From: an uncultured Candidatus Saccharibacteria bacterium
GTDB lineage: Bacteria > Patescibacteriota > Minisyncoccia > UBA6257 > Colwellbacteraceae
DNA: 64,000 bases
Assembly (NCBI GenBank): GCA_964643135.1
Contig: CAZXPC010000003.1
Location: 6,152 to 70,151, forward strand
Direction of reading: 5' to 3'
Under the pieces are notes generated by a model. The model was given only the letters and a program-made list of their open reading frames with translations. It was not told the origin of the DNA and did not search any database. Below, in pieces: positions 370 through 58,520 of this stretch. A program made the position numbers and the translations under genes. How positions within the stretch are numbered: the stretch's first letter is position 1; each line of letters opens with the position of its first letter.

Positions 370-434
370 AAAGTACCAAAGAAGGCGGGTCAACCGCCTT
401 TTAAGTATATAACATATATATTGCCTACTGCCTA

Positions 435-653
435 TTATTCATCCTCATCCCCCTCCAATGCCCACCCCGAGCGCTCATCGTCATCTTCTTCATCGAATAA
501 AGACTCATCGTCATCTTCTTCATCTTCGTCAGTCGAGCCGTCAGCATCTTCCTCCTCGAGTGATTCGCCCTCGCCGAATTCATCGTCTTCTTCCAGTTCG
601 TCTTGATCGGTTTTCAGCGACTTGGTTTTCTTCACCTCCTTTTTTATGGCCAT
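435..653 (-). CDS. Small, highly acidic hypothetical protein (Lys-rich N-terminus, poly-Asp/Glu tail)
   Basis: 72-aa ORF lying between the amidase and the PBP on the same strand. Composition is extreme (D/E runs). The opposite-strand poly-Ser ORF at 361-606 is its mirror and is less plausible. Confidence 0.35.
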   Translation of the reverse strand: MAIKKEVKKTKSLKTDQDELEEDDEFGEGESLEEEDADGSTDEDEEDDDESLFDEEDDDERSGWALEGDEDE

Positions 654-704
654 TTTTTAAAAGTGGTTATTTTTACGCAAATTATATTCAAGAACACTTC
701 TCTG

Positions 705-1967: not shown

Positions 1968-1972
1968 GATTT

Positions 1973-2437: not shown

Positions 2438-2455
2438 TCTTTAATTATACGCGAA

Positions 2456-2977
2456 TTATATATTTGAGTAGATTTCTTTAATGTCGCCTCTCTCTTCTAA
2501 GTCCTCGATTAGGTCAGCGATCTTGGCGCGAGCGCCTTCCGAAACTTCTTGTTTGTATTTGGGGATGTAGCCAGCTTCAGTCTTGTCGAAACTCCAAAGC
2601 AGGCTGCCTGGCGTGGCGAGTTTTATTGCGTGGTCGTTGAGGGTGATTTTAATTTCGTTTAGGGTTCTGGGCTTGTTGTCAGTGAGGCTTTCAATAATGA
2701 TGCCGGCGCCTTCGGGGCCGTAGGCTTCGATTAAGACTTCTTCCAAATCGCCGCTTTCCTTAGCACGCTTAAGCGCCCGTTCTATATTTTCAGCGGGCAT
2801 GTTTTCTTTTTTGGCCCGTTCGATGTGGCTGCGGAGAGTGGGGTTAAAGTCGGGATTAGGCTCTTTTTTCGCGGCCGCTGAAATTAAATTCGAAAGCTTC
2901 GAAAAAGTTCGCGCTTTAATTGCGTCGACCCTCCCCTTGCCTGTCTTTATCTGCGACCATTTATTGTGACCTGACAT
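2456..2977 (-). CDS. yebC: YebC/PmpR family DNA-binding transcriptional regulator
   Basis: N-terminus is MSGHNKWSQIKTGKG followed by the conserved YebC core. Confidence 0.85.
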   Translation of the reverse strand: MSGHNKWSQIKTGKGRVDAIKARTFSKLSNLISAAAKKEPNPDFNPTLRSHIERAKKENMPAENIERALKRAKESGDLEEVLIEAYGPEGAGIIIESLTDNKPRTLNEIKITLNDHAIKLATPGSLLWSFDKTEAGYIPKYKQEVSEGARAKIADLIEDLEERGDIKEIYSNI

Positions 2978-3053
2978 GTCTTGAACTATATCAATTTATT
3001 AAAAACTTACCAATCCAAGTTTCGACAGCCTTATTTGTGTTAAAATGATTTAA

Positions 3054-5333: not shown

Positions 5334-5822
5334 ATGTCAAAATTATAACAGTATAGAAAGATATTCACAGTTGATCGCTGGTATTGTTATCAAAAAGGTA
5401 TAGGATGGGGTTAAGAACTCAACCAATTTATTTTTGCAAAGCAACTAGCTTGATCTGATCTGCGAATGAAAAACGTAGGTCTGCGGGCAATTTCCTTTCG
5501 AGGGGAAGCATGCTCAACGCATTAATAAAAACGGTTGAGTTTAGAATTTTTCCGAGGAGTAACCCAGCCGGAGCCAAATTATCCGTTTACTAAGAAAGAA
5601 TTCGCTGCCCGCAGGCCTACACTTTCTATTCCTTTATATCGGCTATATCCTAACATAGCGCCATACCCTTGTCAAGGGCTAGGCGGCCATTACCGATCTT
5701 CCTTCGAAACCCAATTTCCCCTTCGTCACCACAGATAATTTCTACTGAAATTTCTTCTTCTCGACGCCTTCGCGTCTCCGAGAGGCTCCTCAGAGCAAAT
5801 TGGGTTTCTTCGTATGTCATGA

Positions 5823-5941
5823 ATAAGCCCGACCTTGTTCCATGAAGGGAATCTGCGCAAGCCCGTGAAGACGGGTGAGCAAAAACAAAAATCTCAGCAG
5901 AGATTTATTGTGTTTCCCGGAATGGGATGAGGGAGGGCGAG
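5823..5941 (-). repeat. Copy A of a dispersed intergenic repeat core (119 bp), about 95% identical to 33124-33243; lies in a 620-bp ORF-free spacer
   Basis: The reverse complement of 5823-5941 aligns to 33124-33243 with only a handful of substitutions. Those substitutions are concentrated in a hairpin (AAATCTC-TGCT-GAGATTT here, AATTTCT-TGCT-AGAAATT in copy B). Confidence 0.8.
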
Positions 5942-5960
5942 TTTACCTCGAGTTTTACCG

Positions 5961-7406
5961 CTATTTAATCCCATGCGCCTGCGATTCCCGGTAACCCCCT
6001 TCGGTGATTCTTATAAATTCTGCATTTTTTTGGAAAGTATCGATATCCTTAGCGCCTAAGTAACTCATGCTCGATCGAAAGCCGGCGAGCGTGTCTTTTA
6101 AAATAACGGCAACGTCGCCTTTGAATGGCACTTTACCCGACTTTCCTTCCGGGGCGCGGTAAAGACCATCAGAAGTTTTGTGTTCTTTGCGGAGTTTGTC
6201 TTCGAAGCTCTCGCGTGAGGCTCCACCGCGATAAATTTTATAAGCTTGGCCGGAATCCATTATATACTCGCCTGGTGATTCTTTGGTGCCGGAGATAATA
6301 CTGCCAACCATAACTGTGTTAGCGCCGGCAGCGATAGCTTTGGCTAAGTCTCCTGAGTTCCTTATGCCGCCGTCTCCTATGATTGGTACACCATATTTTT
6401 TAGCGGCGGCGGCGCAGAGTTGAATGGCGGTTAGCTGCGGCACGCCGACGCCGGTTACGACCCTAGTGATGCAAGTTGCCCCCGGGCCGATGCCAATCTT
6501 AACGCAATCAGCACCGGCTTTGATCAAATCAACTGTGCCCTGTGGCGTAGCGACATTGCCGGCCACCAGTTCAACGTGCTTAAGGTTTTTTCTAATAGTT
6601 TTCAGAGCATTAATGGCTCGTTCATTGTGCCCGTGCGCCACGTCCATGACTAGAACGTCGCAGCCGGCGTCAACAAGCAGTCCGGCGCGTTCTAAATAGT
6701 CTTCGTTGACGCCCACTGCCGCGCCAACTAGCAAGTGCCCGCTTTTGTCCTTGGCCGCATCGGGATAGAGCGTCTTTTTAACAATGTCGGTGGCGGTAAT
6801 TAGGCCTTTTAAGATACCCTTTTTGTCGACTAAGGGCAGTTTCTCAATCTTATTTCTGCGGAGCACTAGTTTGGCCTCATCTATCTTGATGCCCATTGGT
6901 GCAGTCACAACTTTCTTAGTCATGACGTCACCTATCTTTTTATTCAGATCAGTTTCAAAGCTCACATCGCGGTGAGTTATAATACCGATTACTCGTTTTT
7001 TATCATCGACAACGATTAGGCCCGAGACATTATTCTTGTCAGTAAATTTTTTAACGTCGAGGAGAGTTTTGTCGCTCGTAATTGTGTGCGGATTTTCGAT
7101 GATTACTCCTTCAGACCGCTTAACTTTCTCAACTTCGCGAGCCTGATCAATCTTATCCATAAAACGATGGATCACGCCCAGCCCTCCCATGTGTGCAAAA
7201 GCTTTAGCCATTTCGGACTCAGTCACTGTATCCATGTTCGCACTAACGAGCGGAATATTCAGATCAATATTGCGGCTAAATTTAGTTTTGGTTGAGGCAT
7301 CGCGGCGGGAATAGACATCAGATCGGCGCGGAACCAAAAGAACGTCATCAAATGTTAAGAATTCTTTTGATGAGTTTATGTTGCGATCTGAGAAGTAGTT
7401 CGACAT
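5961..7406 (-). CDS. guaB: Inosine-5'-monophosphate dehydrogenase
   Basis: [34 protein letters not shown] marks the catalytic Cys loop. There is a CBS-pair insertion. Length is 481 aa. Confidence 0.95.
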
Positions 7407-7457
7407 CTATAAGTATAACAAAAACCTCTTTCCATGTCAGTGTGCTAAAATAAATGA

Positions 7458-8729
7458 ATGGCTAACCAACAATTGGTAGATTACATCCAGGGGCAGCTAC
7501 AAAGGGGTGTAACCGAGATACAAATAAGGGAAATTTTGGCAGCGAACAATTGGCAGGCCAGAGACGTGGATGAGGCGTTCGTGTCCATTAACATGGGTGC
7601 GTCCATTAAGCCGGCTCAGGGCTATCGTAAAAGGAATAGGCTTTTGAGCGTTTGGCTCGGCTTCATGATAATTAGCTATAGCTTAATTATAGTTCTAATT
7701 TTTTTGGCGAAACTAGTATCGCCATTACTTAATCTTTTGACCGTTCTAGCTACCCTTGGTACATCGAGTTTTGATTTCGGCGCGTATGCAATAATTCTCC
7801 AATATTCAATCATCGCCTCTGTTTTTGGCATTTTGTGCGTCGTCTTCTTGTTTAGATGGCAGAAGTGGCCGTTTTGGTTTATTTGCTTTATGGCCGCAGC
7901 CGGATTGATTTTCAGCCTAATTTTTTCGCCTAACCATTCTTGGCTCAGCATTTCGGCCGTAATCATTTCAAGCATATTAAGCACCCTCCTCTTGTACCTG
8001 ATCCTAAAACCTCAGTGGCAATACTTTGAGAATAATATTCCCAAACCGAAAGACGCCGCTATTTTTGCGATAATAGGCGTTTTAGTGTCCGGCGGATTAA
8101 TATTATTATTTAATAATATCGGTTTTTCCGGTGGATCAGCCCTTTGTCCAGCTGATAGTTACAAAATTGTCGAAAGAAACAATGAGTTCACTGATGAAAA
8201 CATAGGAACTGCCCAAGCCGCCGACCATGAATATTGCGGAGTTTATAAAAGTTCCTACCCATATGTTTATGAGCACGCTGATTATGAGCGTGTTGATCAG
8301 CTCGATCAATTCAAGTTCCAGATATATCCGCCGGCGGGTTGGATTGTTAAGGATTCCCGGTCAGTTCTAAATAGCGCCGCTTCTACTATAAGTGATGATT
8401 CAGGCTCGGCTGGCTTGGAAATTGAAACCAATCACCCTTCGCCGAGAGGCTTGGATTTGGACGGATATATCAAAGATGACTATGTACGGCTGATGGAGAT
8501 GGTGGGAGAAACTTTGGATTCAAAATATATCACTATTTCGGGCGAGAGGGCTTATTGGCGCGCTTTTAGGAACGACGGCTCTGGCGCCTATGGCAAAGGA
8601 GAGCAACTATTTGTTATCCATAATCAATATGCGTATATCGTGACCGCCGGAGTGGCGGCAGAAGAGGATTGGGATAAATATAAAGATGTTTTGGAAAAAT
8701 CGTTGTTGAGTTTCGAAATACTTAAGTAA
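7458..8729 (+). CDS. Hypothetical membrane protein (soluble N-terminal domain, about 5 TM helices, C-terminal extracytoplasmic domain)
   Basis: ORF only. It has a hydrophobic core. No recognisable family. Confidence 0.5.
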   Translation: MANQQLVDYIQGQLQRGVTEIQIREILAANNWQARDVDEAFVSINMGASIKPAQGYRKRNRLLSVWLGFMIISYSLIIVLIFLAKLVSPLLNLLTVLATLGTSSFDFGAYAIILQYSIIASVFGILCVVFLFRWQKWPFWFICFMAAAGLIFSLIFSPNHSWLSISAVIISSILSTLLLYLILKPQWQYFENNIPKPKDAAIFAIIGVLVSGGLILLFNNIGFSGGSALCPADSYKIVERNNEFTDENIGTAQAADHEYCGVYKSSYPYVYEHADYERVDQLDQFKFQIYPPAGWIVKDSRSVLNSAASTISDDSGSAGLEIETNHPSPRGLDLDGYIKDDYVRLMEMVGETLDSKYITISGERAYWRAFRNDGSGAYGKGEQLFVIHNQYAYIVTAGVAAEEDWDKYKDVLEKSLLSFEILK

Positions 8730-8773
8730 AAAAAGATGGGCCGCGCGTTTGATTTGCGCTAAGCCCAAGATCG

Positions 8774-8953
8774 TTACACCGAGACTGCCACGAATCCGGC
8801 TGATAAGAATGAAAGGGTCAAGCCCACGAAGAATGAGAGCTTGTTATCGTTGGTCATTCCAACCGACATCATCGCGGTGCCCACAGTAAGACCCAGCAGA
8901 CCGATTCCAATCAGGATGTTCATAATTGAATCGCCAAAATTATTGTGACCCAT
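8774..8953 (-). CDS. Small (59 aa) two-helix membrane protein, hypothetical
   Basis: Hand-translated: MGHNNFGDSIMNILIGIGLLGLTVGTAMMSVGMTNDNKLSFFVGLTLSFLSAGFVAVSV. It falls below the ORF-track length cutoff. Confidence 0.3.
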   Translation of the reverse strand: MGHNNFGDSIMNILIGIGLLGLTVGTAMMSVGMTNDNKLSFFVGLTLSFLSAGFVAVSV

Positions 8954-9075
8954 TGGAGATGGGGTGTCAAGTGGTATTCGCCTCTTTATTAGTGGCTAGC
9001 CCCCACACCTAAAATGTGTGTTAAAAATGATGGCTGGGCTGGAGGTTTCTTAGGTGTGGGGGTACAATTTCACTA

Positions 9076-10101
9076 ATGGCTAAGGAGAAAATTAAGAAAA
9101 TTGAGGCTAAGCCCAAAGGGACTCAGGCTGACGAGCAAACTATCGATTCAATTCTACGGCCTTCGGAGTGGGATGAATATATTGGCCAGGAGAATGTTAA
9201 AAAGAATCTCCGCATAATTTTGTCGGCAGCTAAAAAGCGCAAGGAGCCGGTCGACCACCTTTTGTTTTATGGACAAGCTGGGCTTGGTAAAACTACCTTA
9301 GCTAACCTGGTCGCTAAAGACATGGGTGTGCCGATTAAGATCACGACCGGCCCGGCAATTGAGAAGATGGGCGACCTGGCCGCGATTCTTTCCAACCTCG
9401 AACCAAATGATATTTTGTTTGTTGATGAGATACACCGCTTAAATAGACTTGTCGAAGAGGTTCTCTATCCCGCGATGGAAAGCCGCAAGCTTCACATTGT
9501 GATCGGCAAAGGCGCGGGGGCACGAACTATTTCATTAGATTTGCCGGCCTTTACGCTAGTCGGTGCCACAACCCGTGTTAATTTGCTTTCAGAACCGCTT
9601 CGATCGCGTTTCGGCGCTATTTTACGCCTCGACTACTACAACGAAGCGGACATCGAAAAGATTATTGAACGCTCGGCCAAGATCTTGAAGATGAGGATTG
9701 AACCAGAAGCCTTAAAAATTTTAGCCAAGGCCTGCCGCTTTACGCCGAGAATTGCCAACCGCTTGCTGAAACGCGTACGCGACTATGCGGAAGTAGGCGG
9801 GCATAAATCCATAACTGCAGATGTGGCGCGTAAAACAATGGAAGTTTTGGAAATTGATTCACTCGGCCTTGAGCTCTATGACCGAATTTTATTACAAACT
9901 ATTATTGACAAATATAACGGCGGGCCGGTCGGCGTAAACACTATGGCGGCGACCCTAAACGAAGACCGAGATACAATTGAGAATGTTTACGAGCCGTATT
10001 TAATTAAGCTAGGGCTTTTGAAACGGACGCCATCTGGCCGGGTTGTTGAGCCCTTGGCCTACGAACACTTATCTAAAAAGAAAAAAGAAAGTTTGTTTTA
10101 A
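9076..10101 (+). CDS. ruvB: Holliday junction branch migration helicase RuvB
   Basis: Walker A is LLFYGQAGLGKTTLANLVA. AAA+ domain followed by a winged helix. Length is 341 aa. Confidence 0.95.
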   Translation: MAKEKIKKIEAKPKGTQADEQTIDSILRPSEWDEYIGQENVKKNLRIILSAAKKRKEPVDHLLFYGQAGLGKTTLANLVAKDMGVPIKITTGPAIEKMGDLAAILSNLEPNDILFVDEIHRLNRLVEEVLYPAMESRKLHIVIGKGAGARTISLDLPAFTLVGATTRVNLLSEPLRSRFGAILRLDYYNEADIEKIIERSAKILKMRIEPEALKILAKACRFTPRIANRLLKRVRDYAEVGGHKSITADVARKTMEVLEIDSLGLELYDRILLQTIIDKYNGGPVGVNTMAATLNEDRDTIENVYEPYLIKLGLLKRTPSGRVVEPLAYEHLSKKKKESLF

Positions 10102-16816: not shown

Positions 16817-19264
16817 TTGAAGTTGTATATGGTCATTTTACTAATTTCATTAATTTTAGCGGCGGCCGTTTTGGCGGGAGTCGTGTTTTTCTTGGTCGGC
16901 AAGAAAAGATTGGTGGCCATGGTCACGAGATCGCTGAACTCGAGATTAATTTCGGTTTCGTTGCCCAAGAATTTGGACAAAGAACAGAAGCCAGACAAAG
17001 AAATAATCGCGCCGATGGAACAGTTCTATAGCGCGCTCGGAAGCTTGCACCTCAAAAAAGAGAAATGGTGGGCGCCGAAGCAATACATTGTTTTTGAACT
17101 GGCGGTGCCTCATATCGGGGAACAGATTTCTTTCTATGTTTCAGCCAGAAGCCGGATCATGGCTGATATTCAAAAACAGATCTACGCTTATTTCCCGAAA
17201 GCACAGATTAGCGAGATTGAAGATTATAATATTTTTAACCCGACCGGAGTTTCGGTTGGATCATTTGTGAAATTAGAGCACTCGAGCTCTTTGCCGGTCA
17301 GAACCTACAAGGAGATGGAGACCGATCCGCTCCGCGAAATTACCAATGCCCTTTCAAAATTAAAAGAAGTGGGGGAGGGCGCGGCTTTGCAGCTGGTTCT
17401 CAGACCTGCGAATAAGAGAAATCGGAGCAAGGGAATGGCGATCGAGCATCTTCTACGCCAAGGTAAAACCGTGGAAGGAGCGATGAAAGAAGTCGAAAGA
17501 GGCATTGTTTCAGGCGTCTTAAGAGAACTTTTTTACCCGACCAAGAAAGAAGAGCCCAAGACGGTGCAGCCGCCGATAAAAGTTTCGGAAGATCTAATCA
17601 AGCAGGTTGAGAATAAAATCTCTAAGCCCCAATTCGATGTGAATATCCGTTTAGCGGCCTCAGCTAAAGAGTATCGTGAGGCGAATGACATTTTGCGTCA
17701 GCTCCAGAACGCCTTTTCGCAGTTTAATAATCCCGCCCTGAATCAGTTCGATATTATTGAGCCCAACCCGCGCTCTTTAAAGAAACTGTTCTTTAATTTT
17801 TCATATCGGATGTTCGATGAAAAGCAAAAAATGATCTTGTCTTCAGATGAATTGACCGGTATTTATCATTTTCCGAACACCAAACTTGAGACGCCGAGAA
17901 TTAGAGAGACCAAGTCTAAAGTTTCGGAACCGCCGGCAGAATTGCCGCGCGAAGGCCTTTTGATCGGTAAAAATATTTATCGCGGCGAGGATCGGCCCAT
18001 ATACATGGCCAAAGACGACCGGCGTCGGCACCTCTATATAATCGGACAAACTGGAACCGGTAAGAGTAAGGAGATTCAGAGCATGATTATCCAGGACATT
18101 AGGAATGGCGAAGGCGTCGGGCTCATTGATCCGCACGGCGACATCGCTGAAGATGTTTTAGGCTTTATACCGGAGGAAAGGTACAAAGACGTTGTTTTGA
18201 TCGATCCTTCTAACCTGGCTATGCCGGTTGGGCTTAATATGCTCGAGTTCGACCCGAAATTCCCTGAGCAAAAAACTTTTGTGATTAACGAGCTCATGAA
18301 TATTTTTGACAAGCTCTACGATTTGAAAGCGACCGGCGGGCCGATCTTTGAGCAATATACCCGCAATGCTTTGCAACTCTTAATGGAATACCCGGAGCGG
18401 GGATACACAATTCTGGAAATCCCGCGCGTTTTGGCTGACAAGGAATTCCGAAAAGGCTTGCTCGCAACATGTACTAATATTTTGGTTAAAGATTTCTGGG
18501 AAAAAGAGGCTGAAAAAGCTGGCGGGGAAGCTTCGCTCCAGAATTTGGTTCCTTACATTACTTCCAAATTCAACGTCTTCTTGGGCAACGACTATATCCG
18601 GCCGATTATCGCCCAGTCCAAGAGCACGATCCACTTCCGCGAAATCATGGATGAGAAAAAAATCTTGATTGTTAATTTGACGAAAGGACGGTTGGGAGAT
18701 ATCAACGCCTCGCTTTTGGGAATGATCGTAATCGGCAAGATATTAAAGGCGGCCTTTTCACGAGTCGACATTAAAGATGAGAATTTGAGGAAAGATCTTT
18801 ATTTGTATATCGACGAGTTCCAAAATTTTGCCACCGATTCGATTGCCACCATTTTATCCGAAGCCCGCAAGTACAGGTTAGATTTGATTATTGGCCACCA
18901 ATTTATTGAGCAACTAAAGAAAGAGATTAAAGATGCGGTTTTCGGTAACGTCGGCAATATCATGGCCCTCCGGGTTGGCGCAACCGATGCAGAATTTCTG
19001 GCCAAGCAATTTGAGCCGGTCTTCGATCAGAACGATTTGGTTAATATTGATAACTATCACGCTTATGTGAAACTTTTGATAAATGGAAAGACCACGAAGC
19101 CTTTCTCGATTGAATTTTATCCTCCGGAAAAGGGCGTTACAGGGTTGGCGGACAATATTAGGAAGCTCTCATCTCTTAAATACGGCCGCGAAAGGGCGGT
19201 AGTCGAGAAAGAAATTATGCTTCGCCTGAGACCCGAGTATAAACCGGCGGAGCCGGGGGTCTAA
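16817..19264 (+). CDS. Membrane-anchored FtsK/HerA-superfamily ATPase of the type IV secretion type (VirB4/VirD4/TraG-like)
   Basis: N-terminal TM helix. Walker A HLYIIGQTGTGKSK at about aa 410, followed by IDPHGD. Walker B LYLYIDEFQNF. Length is 815 aa. Confidence 0.7.
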   Translation: MKLYMVILLISLILAAAVLAGVVFFLVGKKRLVAMVTRSLNSRLISVSLPKNLDKEQKPDKEIIAPMEQFYSALGSLHLKKEKWWAPKQYIVFELAVPHIGEQISFYVSARSRIMADIQKQIYAYFPKAQISEIEDYNIFNPTGVSVGSFVKLEHSSSLPVRTYKEMETDPLREITNALSKLKEVGEGAALQLVLRPANKRNRSKGMAIEHLLRQGKTVEGAMKEVERGIVSGVLRELFYPTKKEEPKTVQPPIKVSEDLIKQVENKISKPQFDVNIRLAASAKEYREANDILRQLQNAFSQFNNPALNQFDIIEPNPRSLKKLFFNFSYRMFDEKQKMILSSDELTGIYHFPNTKLETPRIRETKSKVSEPPAELPREGLLIGKNIYRGEDRPIYMAKDDRRRHLYIIGQTGTGKSKEIQSMIIQDIRNGEGVGLIDPHGDIAEDVLGFIPEERYKDVVLIDPSNLAMPVGLNMLEFDPKFPEQKTFVINELMNIFDKLYDLKATGGPIFEQYTRNALQLLMEYPERGYTILEIPRVLADKEFRKGLLATCTNILVKDFWEKEAEKAGGEASLQNLVPYITSKFNVFLGNDYIRPIIAQSKSTIHFREIMDEKKILIVNLTKGRLGDINASLLGMIVIGKILKAAFSRVDIKDENLRKDLYLYIDEFQNFATDSIATILSEARKYRLDLIIGHQFIEQLKKEIKDAVFGNVGNIMALRVGATDAEFLAKQFEPVFDQNDLVNIDNYHAYVKLLINGKTTKPFSIEFYPPEKGVTGLADNIRKLSSLKYGRERAVVEKEIMLRLRPEYKPAEPGV

Positions 19265-23147: not shown

Positions 23148-23369
23148 ATGGCTGAAGAGCTGATCCTAGTCTTGGAAAGGGCGGTTGAGATGCTCGATAT
23201 CGAGGACGAGAACGACCGGAAGCAAATGCCCCCCGGCCGCTACGAAGTCCAGCGGCGCCCCAATCCCCACGGCCGCGACGCCAATTGGGTCGTCATCAAG
23301 GGCACGACAACCGGCGCCGCAGAGAACCACTTCCGGCACATGGCTGGAGTTAGGTTCGAAGAACCTTAA
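23148..23369 (+). CDS. Small (73 aa) hypothetical protein in a locally high-GC segment
   Basis: ORF only. Preceded by the operator/promoter at 23081-23128. GC is well above that of its neighbours. Confidence 0.4.
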   Translation: MAEELILVLERAVEMLDIEDENDRKQMPPGRYEVQRRPNPHGRDANWVVIKGTTTGAAENHFRHMAGVRFEEP

Positions 23370-37374: not shown

Positions 37375-37455
37375 GCTGAGGTGGTGAAATGGCATACACG
37401 CGGAGCTTAGGACTCCGTGCCGTAAGGCGTGCGGGTTCAAGTCCCGCCCTCAGCA
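37375..37455 (+). tRNA. tRNA-Leu (anticodon TAG), class II with a long variable arm
   Basis: Acceptor GCTGAGG/CCTCAGC. 3-bp D stem. Anticodon stem CGGAG/CTCCG, loop CTTAGGA. Variable arm TGCCGTAAGGCGT. T-arm GCGGG-TTCAAGT-CCCGC. Confidence 0.85.
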
Positions 37456-37556
37456 CAAGGACTTGAACGGGAAAGGGGTCGGGAAAACGGGAGTTTTCCC
37501 GTGGCGGAAGTATTGAAACCGCTGGGTTTCAAGGAGCGAATGCTTAATGAGCGACG

Positions 37557-37581
37557 TTCAATTGCCCGCCCTCAGCACATA
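37557..37581 (+). repeat. Direct repeat of the 3' 25 nt of tRNA-Leu (23/25 identical), 100 bp downstream of the intact gene. att-like remnant
   Basis: TTCAATTGCCCGCCCTCAGCACA here versus TTCAAGTCCCGCCCTCAGCACA at 37433-37457. A strong 9-bp hairpin (CGGGAAAAC-GGGA-GTTTTCCCG) lies between them. Confidence 0.7.
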
Positions 37582-38031
37582 GGATTGGTCTGATATTGAA
37601 TTTTTCGGGGTATGTGGTATGTTTTATAAATCCGCCTTGTTGGCTGGAGCCAACTCGCATCACAGGCGGCCGGAGAGAAGAGAATGATCGGTACCGACGA
37701 AATGGGCTTGGGGTTCGCGCAAGAACCCACGACGACGCAGCCGGCGAATGAACAGCTCACGCCAGCGGGGAGTTCCCACTCAAGCATCGTCACGGACCGA
37801 GACAGACTTCGATCGTTTTCCGTCAGCCAAGGACGGCGGGTTCGGGAACGAGCTCGAAGGATCTAGGACCGCAAGGGAACATCGCGGCATTGATTAGGTG
37901 AGTCGACTGGCAAGAGCCGGTCTTCCAACTATCGTGCCGCCCTTTTTTTTCAAAAAAAAGAAGCGAAGAGTTGAGGATGGTAGAATCCCATCATAAATCT
38001 CGTTCGCTTGAGGCTTCGCTTCACGCTGCTT

Positions 38032-39045
38032 CTAGGCCCGCGTCGGGTCGCAGTTCACGACCTTGCCCGCTACGCTCGAGTAGAGGTAGAAGTCCGGGCC
38101 GACGTTGTCGAGGTGCGCGTCCGAAGACACGAACATCCACCCTGACTGGACCCAGGAGTAACCCAGGTCGTTCGGGTGTGCCGCGACTGCGCTGTCGTAG
38201 TCGGCTTTCGACTGGTAGAAGCGCGCGACTCCGGCTCCCTGGGCATTGCACGTGAGTCTGGTGACTCCCGTGTCGTGCCCGGTGAAGCGGAACGGTCCGC
38301 TCAACCCTTGCGCCAGCGTGATGACGTCGGCGCCGTAGTTGAGGTAGGTTCCTTTCACTGGGGTGGCCGGGGCTCCGCTGCCGGATGTCGTCACGTTGTT
38401 GATCTTCTCGATCGTGATGTGCCAGTTGGTCGTCCAGGGGTTGTAGTCCCGGAAGGCCATATGGTCAGCGTTCGGGTAGTTCGAGGCGTTCTTGAAGCCC
38501 GAACAGTCCGAGAAGATCATTCCCGAGAGAGCATTCGCTTCCCCAGGAGCGTTGTCGAGCGCGCAGCTGCCCAGAGGAACTGCCGTGGTCAGGTTGACCG
38601 CGAGTCCGCCGAAGCTGCCGATCGAAGCCACGACGAAGTGTTCTCCGAGCTTGCGAACGCTGACTTGGTTCGGAGCGGTGTAGTTCGTTGCGTTCCACCA
38701 CTGGTCTAGATTTGTCACCTTCGCGTCCTTGAAGTCCGCGATGGTGCCGATGCCGCCATCGAGCGTCCACGATTCCGTTGCCGCAGCTGGAGGGCTGGGC
38801 GCAGAATCCGCGGGGTTGTCGTTCGCGTGGTTCGCCGCGACAGCTGCCGCGATGTCCTCCGCGCTTGCCGGGGGAGTCGTCGGGATCTGGTGGAGGAGCT
38901 CGTTGTTCTCCTTGCCGATATCGATCAGCTTGTTGGCCTGGTCTGCGGTCATGCCGTCGGATTCCTTCTTTGCCGCACATCCCGCGAGGGAAATGGTCAG
39001 GAATAGCGTCGCCACCAGGGCGATCATCTTGGGGTTGGGCTTCAT
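38032..39045 (-). CDS. Lipoprotein (lipobox LAGC), hypothetical, high-GC (about 62%) gene
   Basis: N-terminus MKPNPKMIALVATLFLTISLAGC gives a signal peptide plus lipobox Cys. No recognisable domain. Several long antisense shadow ORFs overlap it. Confidence 0.65.
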   Translation of the reverse strand: MKPNPKMIALVATLFLTISLAGCAAKKESDGMTADQANKLIDIGKENNELLHQIPTTPPASAEDIAAAVAANHANDNPADSAPSPPAAATESWTLDGGIGTIADFKDAKVTNLDQWWNATNYTAPNQVSVRKLGEHFVVASIGSFGGLAVNLTTAVPLGSCALDNAPGEANALSGMIFSDCSGFKNASNYPNADHMAFRDYNPWTTNWHITIEKINNVTTSGSGAPATPVKGTYLNYGADVITLAQGLSGPFRFTGHDTGVTRLTCNAQGAGVARFYQSKADYDSAVAAHPNDLGYSWVQSGWMFVSSDAHLDNVGPDFYLYSSVAGKVVNCDPTRA

Positions 39046-39257
39046 TTCAAGTGTCCTCCCGTTATCAAGGTGCTGGCTTAACAGAGTCTATACTCCCGTT
39101 AGGGAGCTAGACTAGCTAGCACCTCAAACGAGTGTGGGACTATGTAAACATACATACGCTATTCTTGTCAAGTCCCCAGGAAACTTAGTGGCCTTTATAG
39201 GCCTTGACAAGACATTGGAGATCTGTTAATCTAAACCGTCAAAATATAAATAAGACT

Positions 39258-41389: not shown

Positions 41390-42331
41390 TTATTTTGGCT
41401 GACTTCTCCTTTTGGAATGAAAAGCTGAATGAACCTCCTTCAGCTCTTTATTCGTGACATGGGTGTAAATCTGGGTGGTCGAAACATTGCTGTGGCCCAA
41501 GAGTTCTTGAACTGATCTCAAGTCTGCGCCATTCATCAGCAAGTCGGTGCCGAATTGGTGCCGCAAAGTGTGAGGTGTTACTTTCTTAGGGATGCCGGCC
41601 GCTTTGGCGTAGTGGGCGATTAGGCGCTCAATACTGCGCGTGGTGAGCCGGCCGATCGGTTTTGGGTCGGCGGCTTTGGTGAAGCTAATAAACAAGGCTT
41701 CTTCGGCGTCGAAACGTTTGTCGAGGAAGGCTTTAATTGATTTTTTGGCCTCGTCGGAGAGGAATACTACTCGCAATTTGTCGCCCTTGCCTCGGATGGT
41801 CAATTCGCCGCGCTCGAAATTGTTGTGTCGGTCGAGACTGGCCAATTCGGAGACGCGCAAGCCGGTCGCGAAAAGAGTTTCTAGGATAGCGCGGTCACGT
41901 AAAACTCTAATATCTGAGCCTTTGGGCGCGGCCAAGAGGCGTTGCAGATCAGTATTATCCATAATTTGAATCTGGCGGGCCGGGATTTTTGGCAGTTCAA
42001 TTTTGTCGGGGGAGACAACCTTATAATCGCGTTTCATTAGGAACTTAAGAAAATTGCGGAGAATAATGATGTAGTACGATTGGGTGATTTTCTTGATCGG
42101 GGGAGTGGAGCTGGCGAGTTTGATACGAAATTCGCGGATAGCTTCCTCGGTAATATCGGAGATATTTTTAACGCCGGATGTCTCGGCGAACTTCCTTAAA
42201 TAACGCTCATAATTAGCCCTGGTGCGGGGGGATTTGTTTTTTTCAATCTCTAAATAGTCGAGATATTGCTTGATCAACTTCTGAACTTCAGTCATATTAG
42301 CTGGATTATACCATTCCCCGTTATGCGACAC
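41390..42331 (-). CDS. xerC: Tyrosine site-specific recombinase (XerC/XerD-like)
   Basis: N-terminal SAM-like core-binding domain. C-terminal catalytic HTLRHQFGTDLLMNGADLRSVQELLGHSNVSTTQIYTHV (R..H..R..H/Y signature). Length is 313 aa. Confidence 0.85.
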   Translation of the reverse strand: MSHNGEWYNPANMTEVQKLIKQYLDYLEIEKNKSPRTRANYERYLRKFAETSGVKNISDITEEAIREFRIKLASSTPPIKKITQSYYIIILRNFLKFLMKRDYKVVSPDKIELPKIPARQIQIMDNTDLQRLLAAPKGSDIRVLRDRAILETLFATGLRVSELASLDRHNNFERGELTIRGKGDKLRVVFLSDEAKKSIKAFLDKRFDAEEALFISFTKAADPKPIGRLTTRSIERLIAHYAKAAGIPKKVTPHTLRHQFGTDLLMNGADLRSVQELLGHSNVSTTQIYTHVTNKELKEVHSAFHSKRRSQPK

Positions 42332-52055: not shown

Positions 52056-52061
52056 AGTTTG

Positions 52062-52133
52062 TGCCGGATCCCAGAATCGAACTGGGTACGCCAGCCTCTT
52101 CAGGGCTGCGCTCTGCCAATGAGCTAATCCGGC
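52062..52133 (-). tRNA. tRNA-Phe (anticodon GAA)
   Basis: Acceptor GCCGGAT/ATCCGGC. D GCTC/GAGC. Anticodon stem CAGCC/GGCTG, loop CTGAAGA. T-arm CCCAG-TTCGATT-CTGGG. Confidence 0.8.
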
Positions 52134-52204: not shown

Positions 52205-52276
52205 GCCCTTGTCGTTCAATGGACAGGACAGAGGTTTCCTAAACCTTAAATGGAGGTTCGATTCCTCCCGAGGGCA
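52205..52276 (+). tRNA. tRNA-Arg (anticodon CCT)
   Basis: Acceptor GCCCTTG/CGAGGGC. Anticodon stem GAGGT/ACCTT, loop TTCCTAA. T-arm GGAGG-TTCGATT-CCTCC. Confidence 0.7.
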
Positions 52277-52338
52277 CAAAATTGGCAAATTTGAATAATT
52301 TATTTTACACTGGTAAAACCTCCGGAACGAGGTTAGAC

Positions 52339-52410
52339 CCTCCTGTAGTTCAATGGATAGAATAGGGAACTTCTAATTCCTTGATCGAGGTTCGATTCCT
52401 CGCGGGAGGA
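52339..52410 (+). tRNA. tRNA-Arg (anticodon TCT)
   Basis: Acceptor CCTCCTG/CGGGAGG. Anticodon stem GGGAA/TTCCT, loop CTTCTAA. T-arm CGAGG-TTCGATT-CCTCG. Confidence 0.7.
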
Positions 52411-52420
52411 CAAGCAGCGA

Positions 52421-52491
52421 CGGGCCGTCGTATATTGGTAGTATACCTGTTTTGGGAACAGGCGGGCTGGGTTCGATTCCCAGCGGCCCGA
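52421..52491 (+). tRNA. tRNA-Pro (anticodon TGG)
   Basis: Acceptor CGGGCCG/CGGCCCG. Anticodon stem CCTGT/ACAGG, loop TTTGGGA. T-arm CTGGG-TTCGATT-CCCAG. The D stem has G-U pairs. Confidence 0.65.
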
Positions 52492-52557
52492 CATCTTAAA
52501 AATAAATAGAGATTTGTAGCAAAAAATAATATATTGTTATAGTATTGTTTTCATCAT

Positions 52558-52629
52558 GGTGCCTATAGCTCAATGGTAGAGCGCCTCCCTGTGGAGGAGG
52601 ATACACGGGTTCGATCCCCGTTAGGCACC
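52558..52629 (+). tRNA. tRNA-His (anticodon GTG) with an encoded G-1
   Basis: Extra 5' G before acceptor GTGCCTA/TAGGCAC. Discriminator C. Anticodon stem CCTCC/GGAGG, loop CTGTGGA. T-arm ACGGG-TTCGATC-CCCGT. Confidence 0.85.
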
Positions 52630-52660
52630 CAATTATAAACTGTCGGCCGAATTAAAAAGA

Positions 52661-52689
52661 TTGACAAACATAATCACCCTCTCTAGAGT
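52661..52689 (+). promoter_or_regulatory. TTGACA-17-TAGAGT promoter-like element upstream of the Orc1/Cdc6 gene
   Basis: TTGACA at 52661-52666, a 17-nt spacer, then TAGAGT at 52684-52689. Same architecture as the promoters at 29291 and 39204. Confidence 0.5.
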
Positions 52690-52772
52690 GGGAATGTTGG
52701 GGTGACAACAACTTGACGACCAAATCCAAACCGAAAGAGGGAATCTTCGATTCGCTCTTGAGGAGCGAGCCG

Positions 52773-53966
52773 ATGTTCAGAAACAAGGAAGTCCTGCGGT
52801 CTAGCTACATGCCTGACGAGCTGCCGCACCGGACGACCCAGATCAATCAGCTCGCGGCGATCCTCGTTGGGGCGCTCAAGGGTGAAACGCCCTCGAACGT
52901 CCTTATCTACGGGCAGTCGGGAACTGGGAAAACCGCGGTGGCGCGCTTCGTGGGCAACGAGCTGCAGAAGACGGGGAAGGAGAAGGACCAGACGGTCTTT
53001 TTCGTCTATATCAACTGCCAGCTCGTCGACACGCAGTATCGAGTCCTCACGCACATCGCGAACCATTTCATCGAGAACTGGGACGACCGCATCCCGTTCA
53101 CGGGCTGGCCGACGGACGAGGTCTACAACAAGCTGAAGCAGAAGATCGACGAGAAGGGAGGCGCCTGCGTCATCGTCTTGGACGAAATCGACAAACTCGT
53201 TTCCAAGGCCGGCGACGACATCCTCTACGCACTCTTGTCGATCAACAGCGACCTGAAGAGCGCGAAGGTGTCCGTGATCGGCATCTCGAACGACCTGAAG
53301 TTCACTGAGCTTCTCGACCCGCGCGTGAAGTCGCGCCTGGGCGAGGAGGAGGTGATCTTCCCTTCGTACGACGCCGTGGAGCTCCAGGACATCATGAAAC
53401 AGCGCGCAGAGATGGCGTTTCAGGGAGGTTCGCTGGAAGACAGCGTCATGCCTCTTTGCGCCGTTTTGGCCGCACAGGAGCATGGCGATGCTCGTCGAGC
53501 GCTGGACCTTCTTCGCGTCGCCGGCGAATTGGCGGAGCGGGAGGGCCAGAAGTCAGTGAGTGAGAAGTACGTGCGGAAGGCTCAGAACAAGATCGAGGGC
53601 GACCGCGTGACCGAGGTCGTGCGCACGCTTCCCACGCAGAGCAAGATCGTGCTTCTCAGTGCGATCTTCGGCGAAGAATCGGGAACGAAGAGTCTCACGA
53701 CCGGCGAGGTGTACGACACGTACCGCGAACTTTGTGAGGAAGCCCGCCAGGACATCCTCACGCAGCGCCGCGTTACGGACCTCATCTCGGAACTCGACAT
53801 GCTCGGAATCTTCCGGGCGCGGGTTGTCTCCAAGGGGCGTTACGGACGCACCAAGGAGATCGAGCTGGCCATTCCGGTTGAAGAGACCAAGGCTGTGCTC
53901 TGCGAGGATCCTGTCGTGGGGCCAGTCATGGGGTTCCGCCCAAAGAAGCAATCGAGGCTCTTCTAG
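52773..53966 (+). CDS. Orc1/Cdc6-family AAA+ ATPase (archaeal/eukaryotic-type replication initiator homolog), high-GC islet
   Basis: N-terminal MFRNKEVLRSSYMPDELPHRTTQINQL follows the Orc1/Cdc6 IF.N.E.L...Y.P..LPHR..Q pattern. Walker A LIYGQSGTGKTAVA. Walker B VIVLDEIDKL. Sensor-1 ISN. C-terminal winged helix. About 60% GC against about 40-45% in the flanks. An alternative TTG start at 52713 (ORF-track start) would add 20 aa. Confidence 0.8.
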   Translation: MFRNKEVLRSSYMPDELPHRTTQINQLAAILVGALKGETPSNVLIYGQSGTGKTAVARFVGNELQKTGKEKDQTVFFVYINCQLVDTQYRVLTHIANHFIENWDDRIPFTGWPTDEVYNKLKQKIDEKGGACVIVLDEIDKLVSKAGDDILYALLSINSDLKSAKVSVIGISNDLKFTELLDPRVKSRLGEEEVIFPSYDAVELQDIMKQRAEMAFQGGSLEDSVMPLCAVLAAQEHGDARRALDLLRVAGELAEREGQKSVSEKYVRKAQNKIEGDRVTEVVRTLPTQSKIVLLSAIFGEESGTKSLTTGEVYDTYRELCEEARQDILTQRRVTDLISELDMLGIFRARVVSKGRYGRTKEIELAIPVEETKAVLCEDPVVGPVMGFRPKKQSRLF

Positions 53967-54030
53967 TCAGCGAACGTCGCCCCCCACGGGTTATTCGCGC
54001 CATCTGTGCAAACAGACCGCGCATAACCCG
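53967..54030 (+). terminator. Terminator-like hairpin (ACGGGTTAT ... ATAACCCGT plus a T7 run) after the Orc1/Cdc6 gene
   Basis: 9-bp stem with a long loop, followed by TTTTTTTATTT. Confidence 0.5.
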
Positions 54031-54060
54031 TTTTTTTATTTCTCTGATATACTTAAATGC

Positions 54061-55134
54061 ATGAGTAAAATTGCTAAATATCTCCGGCCGGCCGCTGTAT
54101 TTTTGGGTTTTTTATTTTTAGCTAAATCGGCTTCGGCGCACGAGGCTTATGTCTTGCCGCAGGCTGATTTTTGGGCGGCTATGAATTCTCCTTTTAGTTT
54201 GTATTCTTTGGATGCTTTGAAAGATCCCAATAATATTTTGATTGCCGTTCAAATTTTTGCCGGAGTGTCGCTGATGCTTGTTTTGAGCTTTTTCTTCCGG
54301 CGGTCAAAGCTGGGTAAGAAGTTAAACGATAAGATAGAAACTTTGTCGCCGATCGGTCTGCTTTTTGTGAGAGCCGCGCTCGCCATTTCATTATTTTTTT
54401 CGGCTTATTCATATGATTTTCTGGGTCCGGAACTGAAAATGTCGTTCCTGCCTTTTGCGCCATTGATCCAGGCCGCTCTCTACCTTATCAGTTTCATGAT
54501 TGCGGTCGGGTTTCTGACCGAATTAGCGGCCGGCGCCGCCCTCATCATATTCTTCATCGGGTTCTTTACCTTCGGCGGCTATGTTTTTACCTACCTGAAT
54601 TATCTGGGTTCAATATTAGTACTGCTGCTTTTTGGGATGCGTAAATGGTCGGTGGACGGCTACCTTTTCGGCCCGCTCAAACGATTTAAAGATTTCAGAA
54701 AATATGGAACCACAATCGTCCGGATTTGTTACGGTTTGGCGCTCGTTTACGCGGCGGTCACGGTAAAGTTCCTCCACCCGGAGCTGGTGGTCGATATTGT
54801 TAAGACCTGGAACCTGACTCAATTCGGCTGGCTTTTTCCCTCGGATCCGCTTTTGATCGCGTTTGGCGCCGGTCTCGCTGAAACCGCCATTGGTTTATTT
54901 ATAATTTTCGGTTTTGAGCTGAGGCTGACGGTTTTAGTCAGTTTGTTTTATATCACGCTCTCTTTGTTTTTCTTCAGAGAATTAGTTTGGCCGCATTTGA
55001 TGCTTTACGGCATATCTTTTAACTTGCTGGTCCAGCCGGAAATATTTACACTCGACCATTTCTTTGAGAAAAAGCTCTCCAATTTGTGGCTGCATCCGTT
55101 CCATCCGCACGTTAAAGCCAGCGAGAAAAAGTAG
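54061..55134 (+). CDS. Hypothetical polytopic integral membrane protein
   Basis: About 357 aa from the MSKIAKYL start, with multiple TM helices and low GC. The ORF-track start at 53659 is an artefactual extension overlapping the Orc1 gene in another frame. Confidence 0.55.
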   Translation: MSKIAKYLRPAAVFLGFLFLAKSASAHEAYVLPQADFWAAMNSPFSLYSLDALKDPNNILIAVQIFAGVSLMLVLSFFFRRSKLGKKLNDKIETLSPIGLLFVRAALAISLFFSAYSYDFLGPELKMSFLPFAPLIQAALYLISFMIAVGFLTELAAGAALIIFFIGFFTFGGYVFTYLNYLGSILVLLLFGMRKWSVDGYLFGPLKRFKDFRKYGTTIVRICYGLALVYAAVTVKFLHPELVVDIVKTWNLTQFGWLFPSDPLLIAFGAGLAETAIGLFIIFGFELRLTVLVSLFYITLSLFFFRELVWPHLMLYGISFNLLVQPEIFTLDHFFEKKLSNLWLHPFHPHVKASEKK

Positions 55135-55145
55135 AGCGGACTCAA

Positions 55146-55526
55146 TCAGCTGAGTTTTAAAACGGACATCACCTCTTCGGCGATGTTTTCCAGGCTCCAG
55201 TTGGTTTTAATCATAATAACGGCCGCGTCCTTGGTTGCCGGTTCGAGGATAAGGTTCTGGATATCTGAGTTAGTGATAATAATAACGGGGACGGTCTTGC
55301 CTTCCGGGCTGGCTCGAAGCTTCTCAAGCATTTTAACCCCGTTCATAACAGGCATGACAATATCTAAAATAATTACATCAGGCTTTTCCTTTAAGGCGTC
55401 CGTCAGCCCCTCTTCTCCGTTCTCGGCGCTGATAGTCGTGAAACCCTTTTTCTCGAAAATCAAAGAAAGCGCTTTCCGGGCGGCTGGGTCGTCGTCAACA
55501 ATGAGCATCTTTTTTTCTGTGATCAT
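55146..55526 (-). CDS. Response regulator receiver domain protein (CheY-like, stand-alone REC)
   Basis: MLIVDDDPAARKALSLIF...DIVMPVMNG...K places the phospho-acceptor Asp in context. Length is 126 aa. Confidence 0.85.
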   Translation of the reverse strand: MITEKKMLIVDDDPAARKALSLIFEKKGFTTISAENGEEGLTDALKEKPDVIILDIVMPVMNGVKMLEKLRASPEGKTVPVIIITNSDIQNLILEPATKDAAVIMIKTNWSLENIAEEVMSVLKLS

Positions 55527-55565
55527 GTCTACAGTATAGACGATTAAAGCTGGAATTAGTAACTT

Positions 55566-57467: not shown

Positions 57468-57575
57468 GGTTGTGTTAGACTTATCGAAGTTTGCGGCTGA
57501 GGTAAAACTGAATATATTTTTAAAATCAAGAAAACTCTTAGCAAAGAATAATTTGTGCTATAATATAACGATAAT

Positions 57576-58520
57576 ATGAATAAACAAGGACGCCAATCAG
57601 TTGTCGAAATTGTATACTACCTTGTTAGCTTTCTATTGTGGGGAGCTTACATGTACATAACTTTTACTGCGCCGATAAATAGAACCAGCACTCTTCTCCA
57701 GGGAGTGAGCGACATTCAGGTACGCCTCATCCAGATTAGCGTGGCCCTGCCTATTTTTATGACTTGGGCTCTGGGACTTTACGGCGGAGTCAGGCTTAAC
57801 CGCTATGCTAATTCGATCCAGGGAAGCAGCGAGGCGAAAGGCTTGCGAATGGTGTCTTATGGCATCATGGCTCTGGTCTTGGGAATTGCGGCCAACCAGG
57901 CGATGGGTTCTTTAAAATCTCTCTATTTAAACAATCCTGCCGCTTTGGAGACTATTATTATAGCCGCCAACTACTTAAAAATGATTGTGACGCTCTTGCC
58001 TTTTGCGATTATGCTTTGGGGTTCGCGCGCTCTTTTGAAATCTATGAATATCAAACCGAAAGAACGGTTCAATTTGTTTTTTCCGGCTTTTTCGCTCGTC
58101 GTAACGGCCAGTCTCTACTTGCTCCTGTATGTTCTCGACCCGGCCAGGCAAACATCAAGCGTCCCTTCGGTTACGCCGACCTATTATTTGTCTGACGGGA
58201 TCGTCATCCTCACCATCGTCGTGCCTTATTTCATAGCCTGGTGGATGGGATTTCTCGCTATCCTGAACATGGAAACTTATATGGAGCAGATCAACGGCGT
58301 TTTGTACAAGAAATCATTCGAACGGTTTTTGATAGGCTTCATCACGATTGTCATGGCTTCCATAGTATTCCAGATAGTTTCAACTATGGCCTCAAAGCTG
58401 ATTCAAATCGGCCTGGGTCCTATATTAATTCTAATTTATATTCTTCTTGCTATTTTAGCCGCGGGCTATATCATCATAGCCCTGGGAGCCAGACGATTAG
58501 ATAAAATAGAAACTGTTTAA
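57576..58520 (+). CDS. Hypothetical polytopic membrane protein
   Basis: 314-aa ORF, about 8 hydrophobic helices. No known family recognised. Confidence 0.5.
   Translation: MNKQGRQSVVEIVYYLVSFLLWGAYMYITFTAPINRTSTLLQGVSDIQVRLIQISVALPIFMTWALGLYGGVRLNRYANSIQGSSEAKGLRMVSYGIMALVLGIAANQAMGSLKSLYLNNPAALETIIIAANYLKMIVTLLPFAIMLWGSRALLKSMNIKPKERFNLFFPAFSLVVTASLYLLLYVLDPARQTSSVPSVTPTYYLSDGIVILTIVVPYFIAWWMGFLAILNMETYMEQINGVLYKKSFERFLIGFITIVMASIVFQIVSTMASKLIQIGLGPILILIYILLAILAAGYIIIALGARRLDKIETV

Follow-up and report, generated by a model that had tools for sequence, protein, structure and literature searches.

How does a bacterial chromosome come to hold a gene for an archaeal replication initiator, and what might such a protein do there? 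This question is raised by a stretch of 64,000 nucleotides from contig CAZXPC010000003.1 (GenBank assembly GCA_964643135.1; we call the whole stretch the window), in which a gene of the Orc1/Cdc6 family, orc1, lies between a tRNA-His gene and a gene for a DoxX-like membrane protein. Few genes seem less likely than replication initiators to cross the divide between bacteria and archaea, because the partners of initiators are domain-specific (the origin DNA, and MCM versus DnaB loading). We found that the gene encodes an Orc1 protein of archaeal origin, that its junctions with bacterial DNA are real, and that the host carries its own dnaA. From the sequence comparisons described below, we think it probable that the gene passed from an archaeon to an ultra-small bacterium of the Candidate Phyla Radiation (CPR) and was retained there for ATP-dependent binding to DNA and not to initiate replication of the chromosome. 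The genome sequence examined comes to about 71 kb, made up of the window and an extension beyond its left-hand end.

An archaeal Orc1-1 gene joined to bacterial DNA

The orc1 coding sequence extends from a TTG codon at 52713 to position 53966 on the plus strand and specifies 417 amino acids. The original prediction, made from the sequence alone, described a 397-amino-acid open reading frame (ORF). This frame is present, beginning at ATG 52773 with GAGGAG 9 nt upstream of it, and continues upstream in frame to the TTG. The protein deposited in the database (P0001, the NCBI call) has 385 amino acids and starts at an internal ATG at 52809. It is missing the N-terminal FDSLLRSEPMFRNKEVL segment found in all the archaeal orthologues, and because this conserved segment is cut off, the NCBI start is probably mis-annotated. 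Three archaeal orthologues also begin with TTG, at the position that aligns with TTG 52713. The shared start suggests that the native 417-residue frame was transferred whole, and TTG 52713 is probably the native start.

Family models, structure-based alignments and conserved motifs identify the product as a true full-length Orc1-1-type protein. The NCBIfam ORC1 equivalog NF001625 matched over its full length with 609.2 bits (cutoff 501) and TIGR02928 with 461.6 bits (cutoff 181.3). The AAA+ core is followed by Pfam matches to Cdc6_lid (PF22703, 5e-28) and the Cdc6_C winged helix (PF09079, 1e-30). Residues 21-388 align to S. solfataricus Orc1-1 (2qby_A, E 7e-114), including the IPFTG region and the GRYGRTKEI wing, and the alignment to A. 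pernix ORC1 (2v1u_A) had an E value of 1e-105. The full Orc1/Cdc6 signature that had been read from the letters was therefore borne out. The following claimed elements were recovered by motif scan and Pfam: Walker A (GQSGTGKT) at residue 67, Walker B (VIVLDEID, with DEID at 157), sensor-1 (ISN, within GISN at 190) and the winged helix. A DPR arginine-finger region at 202, sensor-2 (GDARRA) at 258 and the GRYG wing motif are present as well. Walker A has an intact G-x4-GKT core and departs from the archaeal KT at its two variable positions. Among 69 archaeal homologues, 182 columns show conservation of 95% or more, and the window protein retains 172 of these. The AAA+ motifs, lid, winged helix, recognition helix and wing are all intact, in the same domain order as in archaeal Orc1-1 (2QBY chain A, 2V1U, NF001625/TIGR02928).

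Other ATPase families did not account for the protein. The bacterial proteins DnaA, DnaC and IstB have the initiator-clade AAA+ and P-loop in common with it, and the resemblance is at the level of the P-loop only. DnaA models gave 15.7-18.9 bits (cutoffs 344-410), IstB 16 bits (cutoff 200) and the DnaC-like model PRK06835 16 bits, far under its cutoff. Because the ORC1 models pass and these models reach only 16-19 bits, assignment to the IstB or DnaC class fails. Matches to anti-phage defence ATPases (PADLOC) were at most 21 bits over stretches of 25-45 residues, nearly all at the P-loop.

The relatives of the protein are archaeal. In a homologue search that covered 5.8 billion proteins, the best 120 matches all came from archaea. 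The possibility that the top matches would be generic bacterial AAA ATPases, such as the IstB or DnaC class, which had been named as the outcome that would undo the prediction, was not realized: they were archaeal Orc1/Cdc6 proteins, and not IstB, DnaC or DnaA. The nearest relatives, at 79-81% amino acid identity, were named Thermoplasmatota or Thermoplasmata by their sources. A neighbor-joining distance tree of 70 sequences, computed without bootstrap, placed the window Orc1 on a long branch as sister to a tight clade (P0002-P0034) nested among Thermoplasmatota. At the DNA level, 78-80% identity to two archaeal loci was limited to positions 52746-53966 and ended at the stop codon, and the window DNA upstream and downstream of orc1 had no alignable homology to the flanks of the archaeal loci.

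The original prediction had left the source of the gene as archaeal, viral or plasmid. The archaeal part stands, and we have high confidence that orc1 represents a real transfer from archaea to CPR bacteria. The viral and plasmid part does not. There was no close relative of the window Orc1 among IMG/VR viral contigs, and a plasmid source was rejected since all 457 plasmid matches were below 60% identity, those listed being archaeal. Viral and plasmid paralogues were all below this value, and the window gene groups with chromosomal Orc1-1. The lack of an IMG/VR relative and the low identity of the plasmid matches indicate that the donor gene was a chromosomal Orc1-1 orthologue and not a paralogue from a mobile element.

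Archaeal orc1 genes usually, if not universally, lie beside an origin with origin recognition box (ORB) repeats, and this is not the case in the window. In the archaeal loci, orc1 is preceded by an intergenic region of 750-800 bp with ORB-like cores. Six of these loci have a conserved ORB-like 20-mer of the donor clade, TCAGTGGATGCACCAGTACC (= ACGCWTCAGTGGATGCACCAGTACC), located 160-210 bp upstream of orc1. This clade-specific 20-mer was derived from nine archaeal loci, and every archaeal locus has at least one match to the ORB or the 20-mer. In contrast, only 82 nt, low in GC and unrelated to the archaeal intergenic region, lie between tRNA-His and orc1 in the window. ORB-like repeats, which had been suggested as something to look for, were not found: the window and the dnaA region of the host contain neither the canonical ORB core nor the clade 20-mer. 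Because of this absence, we conclude that the archaeal origin was not transferred along with the gene.

The high-GC segment consists of the gene. The GC content of orc1 is 0.595, compared to a window mean of 0.473, and its GC content at third codon positions (GC3) is 0.816, compared to approximately 0.5 for host genes. In a profile of 400-nt steps, just two long stretches exceed the window mean by more than two standard deviations, and orc1 is one of them, with an abrupt step at both ends, in agreement with the approximately 60% GC and lower-GC flanks described originally. An antisense ORF within orc1 (52683-53483, minus strand, 266 amino acids, GC3 0.56) has no coding-like third-position bias. 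It is of the spurious kind expected in GC-rich coding DNA and was not taken as a gene. The features of the locus are as follows.

52061..52133, minus strand: tRNA-Phe(GAA) (ARAGORN; Rfam tRNA, 60 bits)
52205-52277, plus strand: tRNA-Arg(CCT) (ARAGORN, Rfam)
52339-52411, plus strand: tRNA-Arg(TCT) (ARAGORN, Rfam)
52421-52492, plus strand: tRNA-Pro(TGG) (ARAGORN, Rfam)
52559..52630, plus strand: tRNA-His(GTG), the last host feature before orc1 (ARAGORN; Rfam, 70.8 bits)
52661-52689, plus strand: predicted sigma-70-like promoter, TTGACA-17-TAGAGT (10 of 12 positions matching), in low-GC DNA unlike that of the archaeal loci
52713..53966, plus strand: orc1/cdc6 coding sequence (family models, structure alignment, homologues, shared TTG)
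53986..54038, plus strand: intrinsic-terminator hairpin (53986-54031) followed by seven T residues; 14-nt arms, 93% complementary; -28.8 kcal/mol, z -5.85
54061-55134, plus strand: DoxX-like membrane protein gene, the right-hand host flank (homologues), with a -10 box, TATACT, at 54048-54053

All five tRNAs of the Phe-Arg-Arg-Pro-His cluster described originally were found, but they do not all have the same orientation, because tRNA-Phe is on the minus strand. The end of tRNA-His is 82 nt before TTG 52713 and 142 nt before ATG 52773, the latter matching the spacing of about 140 bp given before. An Rfam scan around orc1 detected no RNA elements besides the tRNAs.

The join of orc1 to bacterial DNA is real and is not an assembly chimera. 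Two contigs from Logan, which consists of per-run assemblies made with an assembler different from that of the metagenome-assembled genome (MAG), are 100% identical to window positions 52252-55261 (L001, run SRR8931233) and 52252-55113 (L002, run SRR8931234). Both begin at 52252 within a tRNA-Arg gene and extend through orc1 into or past the DoxX gene, so that each contains both junctions, and the chimeric mis-join that had been raised as a concern was tested and not borne out. At 90% identity, the protein cluster has as members only the NCBI contig (85,156 bp) and the 397-amino-acid form from the two Logan contigs. Seven related loci in JGI metagenome contigs (73-80% identity) all have archaeal-like flanks of 65-76% GC, and none is in a CPR context. 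No archaeal sequence more than 81% identical to the window Orc1 was present in the protein search or in the JGI contigs. Because two assemblies repeat identical joins around exactly one coding sequence, a double chimera is very unlikely. The idea that archaeal reads were joined to CPR reads during assembly or binning draws on the sharp GC changes at both ends of the segment, the metagenomic source of the contig and the chance that both Logan runs stem from the MAG's own study, but is scarcely credible given the repeated junctions, the continuous CPR DNA on either side of a single coding sequence, the lack of a closer archaeal sequence, and the lineage-specific AT-biased changes that orc1 bears.

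The genes around orc1 identify the host, by sequence, as a Patescibacteria/Paceibacteria-like CPR bacterium. Homologues of the DoxX-like protein, at 55-64% identity, are nearly all from Patescibacteria, Paceibacteria, Nomurabacteria, Kaiserbacteria and similar groups. The neighbours of orc1 are the tRNAs and genes for DoxX, a response regulator, a VIT protein and RarA, and the bacterial-type genes of the window include those for TyrRS, NusA, ClpP, PNPase, RuvB, RuvC, PEP synthase, GyrA and RarA. We also looked for dnaA, as had been proposed, and found it on a Logan contig (L051) that is 100% identical to window positions 1-3588, is contiguous with base 1 of the window and extends 6.1 kb past its left end. 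Positions 5594-9684 of this contig, 2.0-6.1 kb beyond the window start, contain dnaN, dnaA, rnpA and yidC, a canonical bacterial origin neighbourhood. The host DnaA scored 476 bits (cutoff 344) and DnaN 251 bits, and these genes are approximately 56 kb from orc1. Since dnaA-dnaN is present, Orc1 came in addition to the host initiator and did not replace it.

Constraint and expression

We propose the following history for the gene. A full-length, chromosomal-type orc1 of a Thermoplasmatota archaeon would have entered the chromosome of a CPR bacterium that resembles Paceibacteria, landing in the short interval between tRNA-His and the CPR-specific DoxX-like gene. Only the coding sequence would have survived, the upstream archaeal origin DNA with its ORB elements being gone, and the gene would now stand behind a bacterial-type promoter and ahead of a bacterial-type terminator. 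Purifying selection would have maintained the protein, at a rate of evolution about four times that of its archaeal sisters.

The promoter and the terminator hairpin that had been attributed to the gene were both found (see the list above), the former with 10 of 12 matches and the latter ending in U7 in the transcript, and orc1 may plausibly be expressed. A small palindrome (52677-52692) overlaps the -10 element of the promoter-like site. At 33 host gene starts, a Shine-Dalgarno-like motif was present in only 2, and a -10-like motif, TAnn[AC]T, ended 6-11 nt before the ATG in 20, with a sharp positional peak. Host genes thus look mostly leaderless. Examples of -10 boxes at host starts are at 54048-54063, 57560-57578 and 55527-55545, and the DoxX gene fits the rule with TATACT 7 nt before its ATG at 54061.

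Several patterns in the sequence suggest that orc1 has probably been retained by selection. All 417 codons are intact, and the sole length difference is one in-frame 9-nt change. Three-point estimates for the window branch gave dN of approximately 0.10, dS of approximately 0.60 and a dN/dS ratio (omega) of approximately 0.17, similar to the archaeal branches. Nucleotide changes unique to the window are AT-biased (68 GC-to-AT compared to 22 AT-to-GC). The GC-to-AT changes comprise 42 synonymous and 26 nonsynonymous changes and occurred at a rate of 0.041 at second codon positions compared to 0.152 at third positions. At columns that are invariant in nine archaeal orthologues there are 33 window-specific changes, mostly conservative and evenly spread (9-14% per domain). 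In a neutral AT-biased simulation in which GC3 fell from 0.92 to 0.82, the ORF remained intact in 0.4% of runs.

Other observations weigh against retention in a working role. In Tajima relative-rate tests there were 44-54 amino acid changes unique to the window protein and 9-19 in the archaeal sisters (p 1e-8 to 6e-4), and archaeal-versus-archaeal controls were not significant. The protein has therefore evolved approximately 4-fold faster than its archaeal sisters, which fits relaxed constraint too. The low dN/dS falls short of proving selection in the bacterium, because the branch includes a stretch of archaeal history before the transfer. The GC3 of the archaeal orthologues ranges over 0.854-0.978 (0.854 and 0.867 at the lower end), compared to 0.817 for the window gene. 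Because the range reaches 0.854, amelioration may have been slight, the neutral simulation may overstate its case and the residence time may be short, and we do not rely on a strong argument from amelioration. The gene is carried by only one genome among the databases searched. It breaks the rule for host gene starts, as 23 nt separate the end of its -10 element from the TTG, leaving a leader. Neither the window nor the host dnaA region contains a cognate DNA site for Orc1. Lastly, comparison of the locus in related genomes, which had been suggested as a check on the insertion, yielded no clean empty site. This comparison included a DoxX protein search, a scan of GTDB genomes (representatives, the genome of the window not being among them), a tRNA scan of 34 loci and tblastn synteny. 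We attribute the result to the distance of the closest host relatives (55-64% identical) and to the lack of conserved synteny around DoxX. The claim of an insertion stands on composition and phylogeny.

These observations bear on the main rival explanation, which is that the transfer was real and orc1 is a functionless passenger, with little or no expression, drifting to loss. The fast evolution of the protein, the absence of an ORB partner site, the occurrence in a single genome, and a start codon and leader unlike those of the mostly leaderless host genes are all consistent with a passenger. So is the fact that no MCM-sized archaeal gene was noticed among the long ORFs of the window, of which only some were annotated. 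The GC3 of the gene is barely under that of the lowest archaeal orthologue, so the transfer could be very recent. On the other hand, a passenger would not readily explain the intact frame, the preservation of every catalytic and DNA-binding motif, the conservative and evenly spread changes, the low dN/dS, the avoidance of second codon positions by AT-directed changes, or the strong promoter-like site and terminator that flank the gene. We consider a passenger to be a serious but clearly less likely explanation than selective retention. Overall, constraint on orc1 appears to persist, in an altered regime.

The tRNA-His interval and the route of arrival

The position of orc1 directly after tRNA-His raises the question of how it arrived. 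The earlier observation that no integrase or att repeat is visible was confirmed by annotation of the neighbours, by a repeat scan that found no repeat bracketing orc1, and by a search for a second copy of the 3' end of tRNA-His (TCCCCGTTAGGCACC), which found none near orc1 with up to 3 mismatches allowed. No integrase was present within 10 kb of orc1, and the nearest tyrosine recombinase is 10.4 kb away. This gene (41390..42331, minus strand) is XerD-like. It passes the model NF040815 (archaeal XerA/integron-integrase) with 230.6 bits (cutoff 220) and is under the cutoffs of the bacterial XerC and XerD equivalogs (232 and 235 bits compared to 335 and 330).

An 8-mer, CACGGGTT, shared by the tRNA-His gene (52604) and the terminator (53985), had been offered as weak evidence for an att site. 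It has four copies in the window, compared to 1.2 expected, and four copies were reached in 3 of 100 shuffles. This is within chance, and the 8-mer carries no weight as a candidate att site.

Three Paceibacteria relatives have an unrelated gene between tRNA-His and DoxX, which suggests that this interval is a variable slot. In L010 (4750-6001), L016 (4653-5941) and L036 (5387-5968), tRNA-His is 0.5-1.3 kb upstream of the DoxX orthologue. The gene in between is different in each: a hypothetical protein of 343-370 amino acids, a HAD-like hydrolase on the opposite strand, and a hypothetical protein of 135-174 amino acids.

There is a second high-GC island in the window (37375-39100). It contains an ORF (38032..39045, minus strand) of 337 amino acids with a GC content of 0.62, GC3 of 0.82 and a lipoprotein-like N-terminus (LAGC). 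The product has no Pfam match and recovered only itself in the protein search (an ORFan). The ORF is just after tRNA-Leu(TAG) (37375-37456), and an exact second copy of the last 15 nt of this tRNA (CCCGCCCTCAGCACA) lies 122 nt further downstream, at 37565-37579, where 0.05 copies were expected. This repeat resembles an att scar. Because a second high-GC gene follows a tRNA with a 15-nt copy of its end, foreign genes beside tRNAs may be recurrent in this genome.

Of the properties commonly looked for in an island, orc1 has a composition unlike that of the host, a position beside a tRNA and a variable slot; it does not have an adjacent integrase or an att repeat. One possible route is that orc1 is remnant cargo of a tRNA-targeting integrative element that has since lost its integrase and att sites. 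This concerns arrival only and is compatible with retention as a DNA-binding protein. It would account for the position after tRNA-His, for the unrelated genes that fill the interval in the three relatives, and for the parallel of the high-GC gene beside the tRNA-Leu copy. The distance of the XerD-like gene, the unduplicated 3' end of tRNA-His and the chance level of the shared 8-mer argue against it, and we think such a route unlikely.

Contact between the two partners offers another setting for transfer. Paceibacteria that parasitise archaea have been documented (PMC9600506, PMC9763046, PMC10936435, PMC12281837), and therefore contact-mediated transfer is plausible. The known archaeal hosts are methanogens, whereas the Orc1 donor type is Thermoplasmatota. 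Orc1/Cdc6 and horizontal transfer are not mentioned in two of these reports on archaea-parasitising Patescibacteria (PMC10936435, PMC12281837). A precedent for gene transfer between archaea and CPR/Patescibacteria is form III RuBisCO (bioRxiv 10.64898/2026.05.13.725050). As here, known transfers of this kind involve single genes, but those genes are metabolic, whereas orc1 is informational (replication).

Possible roles of Orc1 in the bacterium

The window Orc1 resembles archaeal Orc1-1 in sequence (79-81% identity to the Thermoplasmatota orthologues, with the same TTG start) and in having its ATPase motifs, wing and recognition helix all kept. It differs in its setting: a bacterial CPR chromosome with dnaA-dnaN, no upstream ORB-like region of 750-800 bp, a bacterial-type promoter and terminator, and a four-fold faster amino acid evolution. 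Because the host replicates with its own DnaA and DnaN, Orc1 is not its chromosomal initiator. The presence of DnaA, the absence of ORB and the fact that no MCM-sized archaeal gene was noticed (in the survey of long ORFs mentioned above) argue against canonical origin licensing. Because the ATPase, the initiator-specific motif (ISM) region and the winged helix are intact, we favour ATP-regulated, sequence-specific DNA binding. The protein would bind and bend double-stranded DNA for a purpose other than MCM loading.

Among such purposes, a repurposed regulator or DNA-recognition factor is a tentative suggestion that we put forward by analogy. Orc1/Cdc6 proteins that are regulators and not initiators include Orc1-2 of Sulfolobales (PMC6061795, PMC9738581) and Orf8 of the haloarchaeal virus SNJ2 (PMC10123103). 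Like the window Orc1, these have no link to an origin, and their AAA+, ISM and winged-helix elements serve DNA binding and regulation. They represent divergent paralogues encoded by archaea or archaeal viruses; the window protein, in contrast, is an Orc1-1 orthologue in a bacterium. Nor was there any sign, for the window protein, of a target promoter, of a partner gene or of a damage-response context. A functional likeness to these proteins may therefore be supposed by inference only.

A more specific possibility is that the bacterium is one of the Paceibacteria and lives as an epibiont or parasite on a Thermoplasmatota archaeon, and that it captured the initiator of its host and has kept it under selection. 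The protein would then serve in recognising or manipulating host DNA; it might, for example, bind archaeal DNA with ORBs after uptake by the bacterium, or disturb origin licensing in the host. We consider this quite improbable. If true, it would be a cross-domain case of a parasite employing a host-derived replication factor.

Still less probable is that orc1 initiates replication at an additional, archaeal-type origin, or for an element that is either integrated or extrachromosomal: Orc1-1 orthologues bind origins, the DNA-binding elements are intact and archaeal plasmids often carry orc1, but the donor-clade 20-mer and ORB core are absent from the window and dnaA region, there are no element genes, integrase or att beside the gene, it groups with chromosomal Orc1-1 and not with the plasmid and viral paralogues (all below 60%), and the chromosome has dnaA-dnaN.

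The protein itself is an ordinary member of a well-known family, and so the novelty is in its host and context. No description of Orc1/Cdc6 in CPR bacteria was found in the literature searched. What is new is an intact, origin-less archaeal initiator of the chromosomal type in a DnaA-bearing CPR bacterium, as a single-genome observation. The window thus provides a clean and verifiable case of an archaeal Orc1 that has been orphaned from its origin in a bacterium that uses DnaA, and that apparently is still constrained. If orc1 is expressed, then reuse of the DNA-binding ATPase module of Orc1 would be possible beyond archaeal replication, and in a different domain of life. Expression would also be a sign that a Paceibacteria lineage and Thermoplasmatota come into close physical contact, matching the findings on parasites of archaea.

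Three further observations were made elsewhere in the window. An 815-amino-acid protein (16817-19264, plus strand) has weak similarity to VirD4/TraD-type coupling proteins, in the nucleotide-binding part only, at 51 bits, far below the cutoff. A 73-amino-acid ORF (23148-23369, plus strand) has no Pfam match and has a GC content of 0.60 and GC3 of 0.74, well over the host level. Cumulative GC skew rises over the profiled part of the window (48-60 kb).

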